A DNA stretch of 64,000 nucleotides from Centroscyllium fabricii (Eukaryota). The notes beneath the pieces are model-generated. The model searched no databases. It worked only from the letters and a program-made list of their open reading frames with translations, and was not told where the DNA came from. Both the position numbers and the translations under genes were made by a program. This document shows positions 21,629 to 22,286 of the stretch, in pieces. The stretch covers positions 124,001-188,000 of the forward strand of contig JBNRSN020000524.1 in assembly GCA_051313645.2 (NCBI GenBank), in the 5' to 3' direction. Positions within the stretch are counted from its first letter, which is position 1. Each line of letters opens with the position of its first letter.

Positions 21629-22286
21629 CAGGTTGAAGACCGTTAATCCGGCACGGGTGGGACCAGGCCCATGCCGGTACAGTGAAATAACTGGAAGAAT
21701 GAAGCCGGTGCACATGCGTGCACCATTCAAAAATGGCCATGCGCATAACATTGGAAATGGCCGCCGTGAAATTTTGAATGATCTGCGCATGCGCTGCCGA
21801 ACGGCGAGCGCATGCGCAGATCATGCGAAATCGCCGCCGCGAAGTTGGCGGTGGGCAGCAGGTAGAGGGTGCCGACCAGCCGGTTCTCCTCCACCGTCAG
21901 GGTCAGCACCGGCGACGGGAAGCTGGGCGTGTTGTCGTTGATGTCTTCGATCATGACTTTGCCATTGTACAGGTCGACCCAGCTCTGAGCCAGCCCGATC
22001 ACCGACACCTCGAAGTCGACGAAGCACTCGTTCTCGTCGAAGATCATCTGGCACTGCAGCAGCTTCTCACGGTCCATTCTTCGCATGCGCAGATCATTCA
22101 AAAATTCCAGCGGCCATTTTGAATGATCTGCGCATGTGCTCGCTGTTCGGCGGTGCATGCGCAGATCATTCGCCAAAGCATCAATCGCGGTGGCCATTTT
22201 GCGCATGCGCAGGGCTGTCGGGGCTATGATGCCGGACGACTGAAGTTGCCGTTTTTTCGGTTACCATATTAACGTTCTTCAACCTG
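21629..22286. mobile_element. Non-autonomous Tigger/pogo-like TIR element carrying a protocadherin-7 fragment (Pack-type MITE, copy 2)
   Basis: TA flanks at 21627-28 and 22287-88. TIR CAGGTTGAAGACCGTTAAT vs reverse-complemented end CAGGTTGAAGAACGTTAAT. Arms are clearly homologous to 1621-2278. Confidence 0.93.
21847..22083 (-). pseudogene. PCDH7: Captured protocadherin-7 coding fragment (EC1-EC2 junction)
   Basis: Minus frame RRMDREKLLQCQMIFDENECFVDFEVSVIGLAQSWVDLYNGKVMIEDINDNTPSFPSPVLTLTVEENRLVGTLYLLPTA. It has cadherin DRE and DINDNxP motifs and is near-identical to the PCDH7 sequence as I recall it (IDREKLPQCQMIFDENECFLDFEVSVIGPSQSWVDL...). No signal peptide or downstream domains. Confidence 0.9.

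Follow-up and report, generated by a model that had tools for sequence, protein, structure and literature searches.

A Pack-type element in an EHBP1 intron

The window analysed here, a stretch of 64,000 nucleotides (GCA_051313645.2, contig JBNRSN020000524.1, positions 124,001–188,000 of the forward strand), lies on a 250-kb unplaced contig in the 7.2-Gb assembly of the shark Centroscyllium fabricii, below called the host. An intron of the EHBP1 gene in this window contains a 658-bp element (21629–22286; TA/CAGGT...ACCTG/TA, with CAGG...CCTG ends), and between the two arms of the element there is a fragment of the first exon of the protocadherin-7 gene, PCDH7. The TA target duplication, the short terminal inverted repeats (TIRs) starting with CAG, the shortness and non-coding character of the element, and its high copy number identify the family as a miniature inverted-repeat transposable element (MITE). 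The features are as follows.

21627..21628, no strand: TA target-site duplication, left; TA on both sides in 29 of the 30 copies having both TIRs
21629..21652, + strand: terminal inverted repeat with CAGG end, about 24 bp, 92% complementary; one end variant has 1,477 exact matches genome-wide (control 0)
21653..21846, no strand: left arm, an array of palindromic GCGCATGCGC-type and AAAATGGC units, ending at the shared break point GGCCGCCGCGAAGTT
21847..22074, - strand: captured PCDH7 exon-1 fragment, 76 codons, residues 82–157 of the host protein, at the EC1/EC2 boundary; 209/228 identical to the host gene
22075..22083, - strand: junction filler reading Arg-Arg-Met; the Arg codons match the arm, the Met codon may be donor-derived
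22084..22262, no strand: right arm; 22110–22171 pairs with 21776–21837 (62 nt, 89%)
22263..22286, - strand: terminal inverted repeat, right
22287..22288, no strand: TA target-site duplication, right
23248..23347, + strand: EHBP1 coding exon (bMERB domain), downstream of the element
about 48983..49054, + strand: next EHBP1 coding exon (translated part)
1621..2278, no strand: TA-flanked sister element from the same family, also within this EHBP1 intron; its central insert is a different, GC-rich one of about 220 bp

The EHBP1 exon preceding the element ends at position 64733 of the same contig (C1072), the intron measures 82,514 bp, and the element is about 0.96 kb away from the splice acceptor of the exon at 23248–23347. 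The EHBP1 exons are collinear along the contig. Because + strand exons of EHBP1 lie on either side, the element is intronic and its PCDH7 insert is antisense to EHBP1; the exons, the TIRs, and the TA flanks together confirm this arrangement, which a preliminary description of the DNA had claimed. The antisense stretch is likewise real, although it comprises 228 nt of PCDH7 and not the roughly 237 nt proposed at that time. The arms (21653–21846 and 22084–22262) hold eight GCATGCGC and three AAAATGGC motifs, which are putative NRF1-like and YY1-like promoter sites, respectively.

Identity, donor, and junctions of the PCDH7 cargo

The minus strand of 21847–22083 translates, as had been described, into 79 codons without a stop. 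The peptide matched 646 longer proteins, the best being shark protocadherin-7 with 89–91% identity, and among the best 120 of them all named entries were protocadherin-7, the rest being unnamed cadherin-domain entries. Its closest match in the PDB was PCDH1, residues 58–135, which span the EC1/EC2 boundary. The best match is therefore a delta-protocadherin, and the original identification as PCDH7 EC1–EC2 agrees with both searches. A Pfam scan of the 79-residue peptide returned no family; the domain piece is too short for this, and the result is no argument against a cadherin.

A search of the host genome with PF08374 gave 12 candidates, among which were four delta-1 protocadherin loci, one of them PCDH7 (G000:C711). 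A second PCDH7 paralogue as a closer donor was rejected, since there is only one PCDH7 among these four loci. Exon 1 of this gene aligns only with 21846–22074 of the window (210/229 identical), and over the captured part proper, 21847–22074, the identity is 91.7%. The donor, whose search had been proposed in the preliminary description, is thus the single PCDH7 exon 1 of the host. Homology to PCDH7 does not run past the element, as it stops at the arms with nothing beyond the insert, and neither arm nor TIR sequence was present in the 8 kb fetched around the PCDH7 segment. The capture lies wholly within exon 1, begins about 240 nt into the coding sequence, and covers 76 or possibly 77 codons, with a GC content of 63% (96% at third codon positions).

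The insert had been described as bounded exactly by the arms. Its homology indeed ends there, but the first two to three of the 79 codons are arm. The leading Arg codons are CGA AGA in the window and CGG CGC both in the host and in the comparison gene, a native PCDH7 contig from sequencing run X4 (organism C), so they represent arm sequence that happens to encode two arginines; the third codon, ATG, may derive from ACG, the state in X4. The two junctions show microhomology of about 1 bp each, which does not exceed chance expectation, and 8–9 nt of arm-like filler occur at the right junction. As had been stated, the insert has no poly(A) of its own and no direct repeat at its ends, and therefore neither the poly(A) tail nor the own target duplication of a retrocopy.

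One capture followed by dispersal

The cargo search of the genome gave 41 candidates, of which 40 were scored, and all 40 were matches; the donor accounts for one of them and 37 element loci for the rest, two of these loci having been matched in two parts. The count of PCDH7-carrying copies that had been called for is thus about 37 loci; the analyses of copies given below cover 36 of the 37. The left junction is kept in 33 of these copies, the right one in 31, and both in 28. Both TIRs occur in 30 of the 36 copies, and 29 of these 30 are enclosed by TA...TA. The copies are located on many contigs with different flanks, and one pair (L020 and L044) shares both flanks. A search with the junction pattern found 20 sites, all among loci already counted, so the census of the PCDH7 cargo is close to complete. 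Given the common junctions, the different flanks, and the TA duplications, the PCDH7 insert was captured once and then dispersed by transposition to about 37 loci.

These copies also decide against explanations of the match that do without the transposon, namely retrocopying, segmental duplication, or an artefact of the assembly. The unplaced 250-kb contig and the pair of copies with shared flanks could be cited in their favor, but 36 loci on many contigs share junctions and not flanks, with TA duplications, and the EHBP1 exons follow each other collinearly along the contig, so that these explanations are already contradicted and we give them practically no weight.

The window copy differs from the majority of the copies at 7 of 228 sites and is an ordinary copy. 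As transposition has produced about 37 such copies, within a family that carries several cargos, the position of this one in EHBP1 is incidental.

Neutral decay and the question of regulation

The 36 copies differ from the column majority at 159 of 6108 non-CpG positions (2.6%) and at 185 of 1718 CpG positions (10.8%). Decay transitions account for 171 of the CpG changes, and 92 of the 123 non-CpG variants are singletons. The changes in the cargo comprise 130 synonymous, 209 nonsynonymous, and 5 stop changes, where the null means are 130.7, 207.0, and 6.3; selection on the reading frame of the cargo was rejected on this match. Frameshifting deletions were found in 6 of the 36 copies. There is no stop in frame in 32 of the 36 copies, and consequently the open frame of the window copy means nothing by itself. 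The PCDH7 cargo evolves neutrally with CpG decay.

It had been suggested that EHBP1 pre-mRNA could yield trans-acting small RNA from the insert or attract methylation. The geometry for this is real, as the + strand pre-mRNA contains the 228 nt antisense to PCDH7, with perfect antisense runs of 32, 31, 31, 27, and 23 nt. Moreover, cross-talk with donor genes has been documented for plant transposable elements (10.1101/777037) and proposed for Pack-TIRs, i.e., TIR elements with captured host sequence (PMC8277862), according to the accessible sections of both papers. The + strand RNA is predicted to fold strongly (z = -12.7 against 20 shuffles), and the predicted structure contains a 49-bp helix of arm with arm, while helices within the cargo reach at most 7 bp and none connects cargo and arm. 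Because the arms form the stem and PCDH7 the loop, the small-RNA idea is without support here: hairpin processing would be predicted to give small RNA derived from the arms and not from PCDH7, except in the case of trans pairing between the cargo and PCDH7 mRNA. The proposed trans-acting role is thus not supported, the cargo being neutral and the predicted duplex being arm. The methylation part fared better in one respect, since the copies appear to be methylated, judging indirectly from the CpG decay of 10.8% versus 2.6%, but its spread to PCDH7 is not borne out, as the donor segment keeps 23 CpGs compared with 25 in the cargo majority.

It was also considered whether the donor segment had diverged in escape from its copies, and this was rejected; among conserved columns, host PCDH7 has changed at 1 of 58 inside the captured segment and at 5 of 480 outside it (P=0.5), i.e., without enrichment. 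It is therefore very improbable that EHBP1 intronic RNA acts through the window copy, by antisense small RNA or methylation, to regulate PCDH7 and that the insert is kept for this function. Against it stand the lack of constraint on the cargo over 36 copies, the ordinary nature of the window copy, the predicted double-stranded part, which is the arm, and the persisting CpGs and unenriched changes of the donor.

The family and its other cargos

To describe the family independently of the cargo, elements were picked by TIR only, and the first 30 matches on contig C1 represented 28 elements. Twelve of the 28 are empty (269–464 bp), at least 10 have a central insert, and the remainder are broken by nested insertions. 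Three recurring insert classes cover 8 of the at least 10 insert-bearing elements, and none of them is PCDH7.

The cargo of one class consists of the 5' untranslated region of DDX60, its start codon, and about 57 codons, and all three protein matches of this cargo were shark DDX60. The donor is located at C711:330,405,279–330,405,557 (L131:4879–5157), where the cargo ends mid-exon, about 60 bp before the splice donor. A 28-nt pattern around the start codon has 1,677 exact matches in the genome, including the donor (control 0), and since this pattern matches 18 of 25 known DDX60 copies, the true number of DDX60 cargos is higher. When 20 of the first 100 matches were sampled, all 20 adjoined at least one TIR, 16 had both, and 11 were enclosed by TA...TA; the sampled copies differ from their majority by 3.4% at non-CpG sites. 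Most DDX60-cargo copies (L055, L075–L099, L228–L247) are frameshifted by one base after about 22 codons, and a few are in frame. A derived subfamily (L229, L232, L234, L235, L240, L243, and L247) has a tandem array rich in GATTGG and CTGTCAATC units after the DDX60 piece, as well as a fold-back of the left arm; the GATTGG units correspond to inverted CCAAT, and the array has the appearance of promoter-like DNA that was captured serially, in a second event. Both identified donors, PCDH7 and DDX60, are on contig C711, about 93 Mb apart. One family member is located within an intron of DDX60, about 3.2 kb downstream of exon 1, and two further DDX60-like loci (G000:C822:17.56–17.86 Mb; L127–L130) lie in opposite orientation and are 53–63% identical to the query stretch.

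One and the same 15-mer of the arm immediately precedes both the PCDH7 and the DDX60 cargo, which are both in sense direction from the same arm, and a third and a fourth insert follow this motif plus a few T. For the third insert there were 2,088 first-look candidates, with both TIRs at 23 of 25 loci, and for the fourth, which is the insert of the sister element at 1621–2278, there were 407, with both TIRs at 12 of 12 loci. The best 40 of these 407 candidates are 94–100% identical, and the fourth insert is therefore likely younger. Donors of the third and fourth inserts were not found, and both inserts may be internal transposon sequence. For the third this is suggested by longer variants that share its 3' end, so that it may belong to a longer element and not to a host gene. 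The third class (L057, L058, L071, L072, L074, and L100–L124) shows a GTAAGG donor-like site followed by intron-like sequence. Further central inserts were noticed in L054 and in L066 and L068, one of them present in both orientations in two copies. The family thus includes cargo-free siblings and sibling subfamilies with other cargos at one point of the arm, DDX60 being present in more than 1,600 copies.

Transposase, capture mechanism, and age

The best 30 of 1,715 DDE_1 candidates in the host genome were inspected as a possible source of transposase. A related pogo/Tigger family is represented by abundant, TA-flanked DDE_1 elements of about 2.37 kb with CAGG ends; their ends agree with that of the MITE in CAGG and, counted by eye, in 18 of 22 inner-TIR letters, but the TIRs as a whole are not the same. 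At L154:1331–3078, a MITE arm adjoins part of a Tigger transposase, after which comes a complete related MITE having another centre. This locus was rejected as the autonomous partner, because the transposase there is one of the related family with CAGGAAAC ends and the pieces of MITE occur as nested insertions. The MITE ends presumably resemble those of Tigger4/Zombi.

With good confidence, we explain the PCDH7 copies by one old capture of PCDH7 exon 1, likely through template-switching repair, followed by mobilization likely by a Tigger-type transposase in trans and by neutral decay. We hypothesize that the palindromic arm array is a fragile site, which would break or stall replication at its centre. 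Repair could then switch briefly to a GC-rich 5' exon and back again, and a pogo/Tigger transposase acting in trans would move the filled element. The capture would be old, predating the later changes of the host's own PCDH7, and the antisense position in EHBP1 would be a chance insertion without a selected role. As for the template, the insert bears no mark of a retrocopy, and the preliminary description had accordingly argued for DNA-level capture. A DNA template is indeed likely from the sequence; however, it is not proven, as an insert inside one exon can show neither retention nor loss of an intron.

Several results weigh against this explanation. A transposase element with an identical TIR was not found among the best 30 of the 1,715 DDE_1 candidates, and with about 1 bp of microhomology per end, template switching is deduced from the anatomy of the element. 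Furthermore, an RNA template would also account for the fact that neither identified cargo crosses an intron and that both lie in sense direction from one arm. Finally, there are 12 differences in 228 sites between the host PCDH7 and the cargo majority and only 6 between the X4 PCDH7 and the cargo majority, the X4 gene sharing 10 of the 12 cargo states that differ from the host. Seven of the 10 host-side differences are G<->C changes, compared with 0.52 per neutral copy (Poisson P of about 6e-6 for the 7, and 0.03 for the 3 that outgroups polarise as host-derived). This distance between host and cargo, together with the G<->C excess, means that vertical capture presupposes locally accelerated change of the host gene.

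The first of the two alternatives raised by these results, that the cargo was copied from RNA by RNA-templated repair or as a reverse-transcribed patch, would account well for purely exonic cargos from 5' exons. On the other hand, both ends of each cargo fall within an exon, poly(A) and a separate duplication are lacking, the PCDH7 fragment is preceded in its gene by about 240 nt of coding sequence, and the third insert has its donor-like site followed by intron-like sequence; the common orientation of two out of two cargos is a weak argument. We therefore regard copying from RNA as improbable.

The second alternative is an origin of the Pack elements in a different lineage of sharks, from which they would have come into the host by horizontal transfer or hybridisation, together with foreign exon pieces. 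The closeness of the cargo to X4, with none of the 10 host-side states in the cargo, is what such a transfer would leave. In addition, the cargo residue M44 occurs in 1 of 120 PCDH7 proteins (P0009) and is absent from the host, and the two private core changes of the cargo are both synonymous. The DDX60 cargo likewise keeps the outgroup residue G11 and has 20 substitutions in 269 columns plus gaps relative to the host donor, whereas its sampled copies differ from their majority by 3.4% at non-CpG sites. For an old capture speaks that the PCDH7 cargo keeps E6 (120/120 proteins), E17 (116/120), and D37 (111/120), where the host has the derived D, A, and H. Judged from these sequences, both cargos look more ancestral than the present genes of the host, which fits an old capture and, less likely, a transfer.

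The host gene itself offers an explanation in terms of rate. The branch length of host PCDH7 is 0.062, about twice the 0.030 of the nearest sampled relative, so that it evolves faster overall; it groups with a sawshark protein among ten sampled, with moderate support (86/90). The share of cargo words in the sequencing runs of eight organisms was 0.29–0.32, in comparison with 0.28 computed for an X4-like native gene and 0.13 for the host gene, which suggests that the cargo is close to a widespread ancestral state. Of the eight, X2 and X4 gave contigs, the one from X2 being an unrelated 37-nt piece, and X4 was the only informative one among the four runs tried for a donor contig; X1 and X7 gave none, which is no proof of absence. 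Word shares below 0.2 in the RNA runs X15–X20 and X23 were not used. At the mutation rate of 7e-10 per generation reported for the epaulette shark (confidence interval 1.4–14.1e-10), a species from another order, the 2.6% divergence of the copies corresponds to about 4e7 generations (PMC10587355, accessible sections), which is old enough for vertical inheritance; divergence figures from best-match loci are biased low and were not used for dating. The fast host gene, the word shares, and this age favor an old capture with a faster host PCDH7. Transfer would, moreover, require several subfamilies to be transferred jointly, and we consider it unlikely, although somewhat less so than copying from RNA. 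Exon 1 of host PCDH7 (L025) has 11 private amino-acid changes, compared with 4–6 in three other sharks and 22 in the zebra shark; G<->C changes prevail among the differences between host PCDH7 and X4.

Comparison with known systems

The shark element is a Pack-TIR in the definition of Tan et al. (2021; PMC8277862), to whose accessible sections this and the following statements on animal Pack-TIRs refer. Both termini of one TIR element flank the cargo in the window copy and in 30 of the 36 copies, and the internal sequence, which is not transposon-derived, measures 228 bp (within 100–5,000 bp) and has 91.7% identity to its parent (at least 90%). The donor locus is unlinked to the element over the 8 kb around it, and the copies occupy distinct sites with their own target duplications, which makes the case multicopy. 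It resembles other animal Pack-TIRs in that host sequence lies between the TIRs of one element, with a parent that is elsewhere and element-free, in that Tc1/mariner elements are among the main carriers, and in that multicopy cases are far from the parent and GC-rich. Unlike them, the shark cargos with coding sequence occur at about 37 and more than 1,600 loci, and several cargos share one break point. In the survey, only 4 Pack-TIRs (1.4%) were multicopy, a frog example having 3 copies, and the elephant shark scored 0; the conclusion drawn was that most captures remain single-copy and that capture does not depend on transposition (PMC8277862). However, because the pipeline required a unique top match outside TIR elements, it would likely miss high-copy families. 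The present family behaves in the opposite way: after capture, coding exons were multiplied by transposition into tens or thousands of copies, and this in a clade whose only surveyed species scored zero.

An earlier report of this gene-capturing shark family was not found in the open-access literature, subscription journals and repeat databases being outside the search, and copying of gene pieces on this scale is likely unreported for cut-and-paste transposons in animals. Conflict between captured fragments and donor genes is known in maize (10.1101/777037, accessible sections). The family provides a natural system for asking whether such plant-type silencing conflict exists in vertebrates, where DDX60 faces more than 1,600 decoy start exons. 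Its cargos are snapshots of ancestral exon sequence, which can be used for dating or for detecting transfer from shark to shark. There is also a practical consequence, as repeat libraries made from this shark genome would likely mask the true exons of PCDH7 and DDX60, and short reads would mis-map.

Plant Pack-MULEs, which are non-autonomous TIR elements, multiply gene fragments that are GC-rich and often 5' in position. The shark family likewise amplifies GC-rich 5' pieces, but it belongs to another superfamily (TA duplication, short CAGG ends) and to a vertebrate host. In rice, 36% of Pack-MULEs are multicopy (as cited in the accessible sections of PMC8277862). A full vertebrate equivalent of Pack-MULEs, in which a Tigger-type MITE with promoter-motif-like arms repeatedly swaps in first exons and spreads them to hundreds or thousands of sites, with cargos from another shark or a conflict with the donors through small RNA or methylation in addition, is an attractive but rather doubtful extension of our results. 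Bat Helitrons amplify pieces of host 5' untranslated regions and first exons to thousands of copies, the 5' pieces being the most numerous (Thomas et al., 2014; PMC4224331, accessible sections). They are like the shark family in scale and 5' bias, but move by rolling circle, without TIRs or TA duplication, whereas the shark family is a cut-and-paste MITE. With pogo/Tigger-derived MITEs it shares the TA duplication, CAG...CTG ends of about 24 bp, the non-coding character, the thousands of copies, and a related DDE_1 family in the genome, but differs from them by arms that are palindromic arrays with an exchangeable central gene cargo. Since Pack-TIR capture itself is already known, the novelty is a high-copy, multi-cargo Pack-TIR family in a vertebrate.
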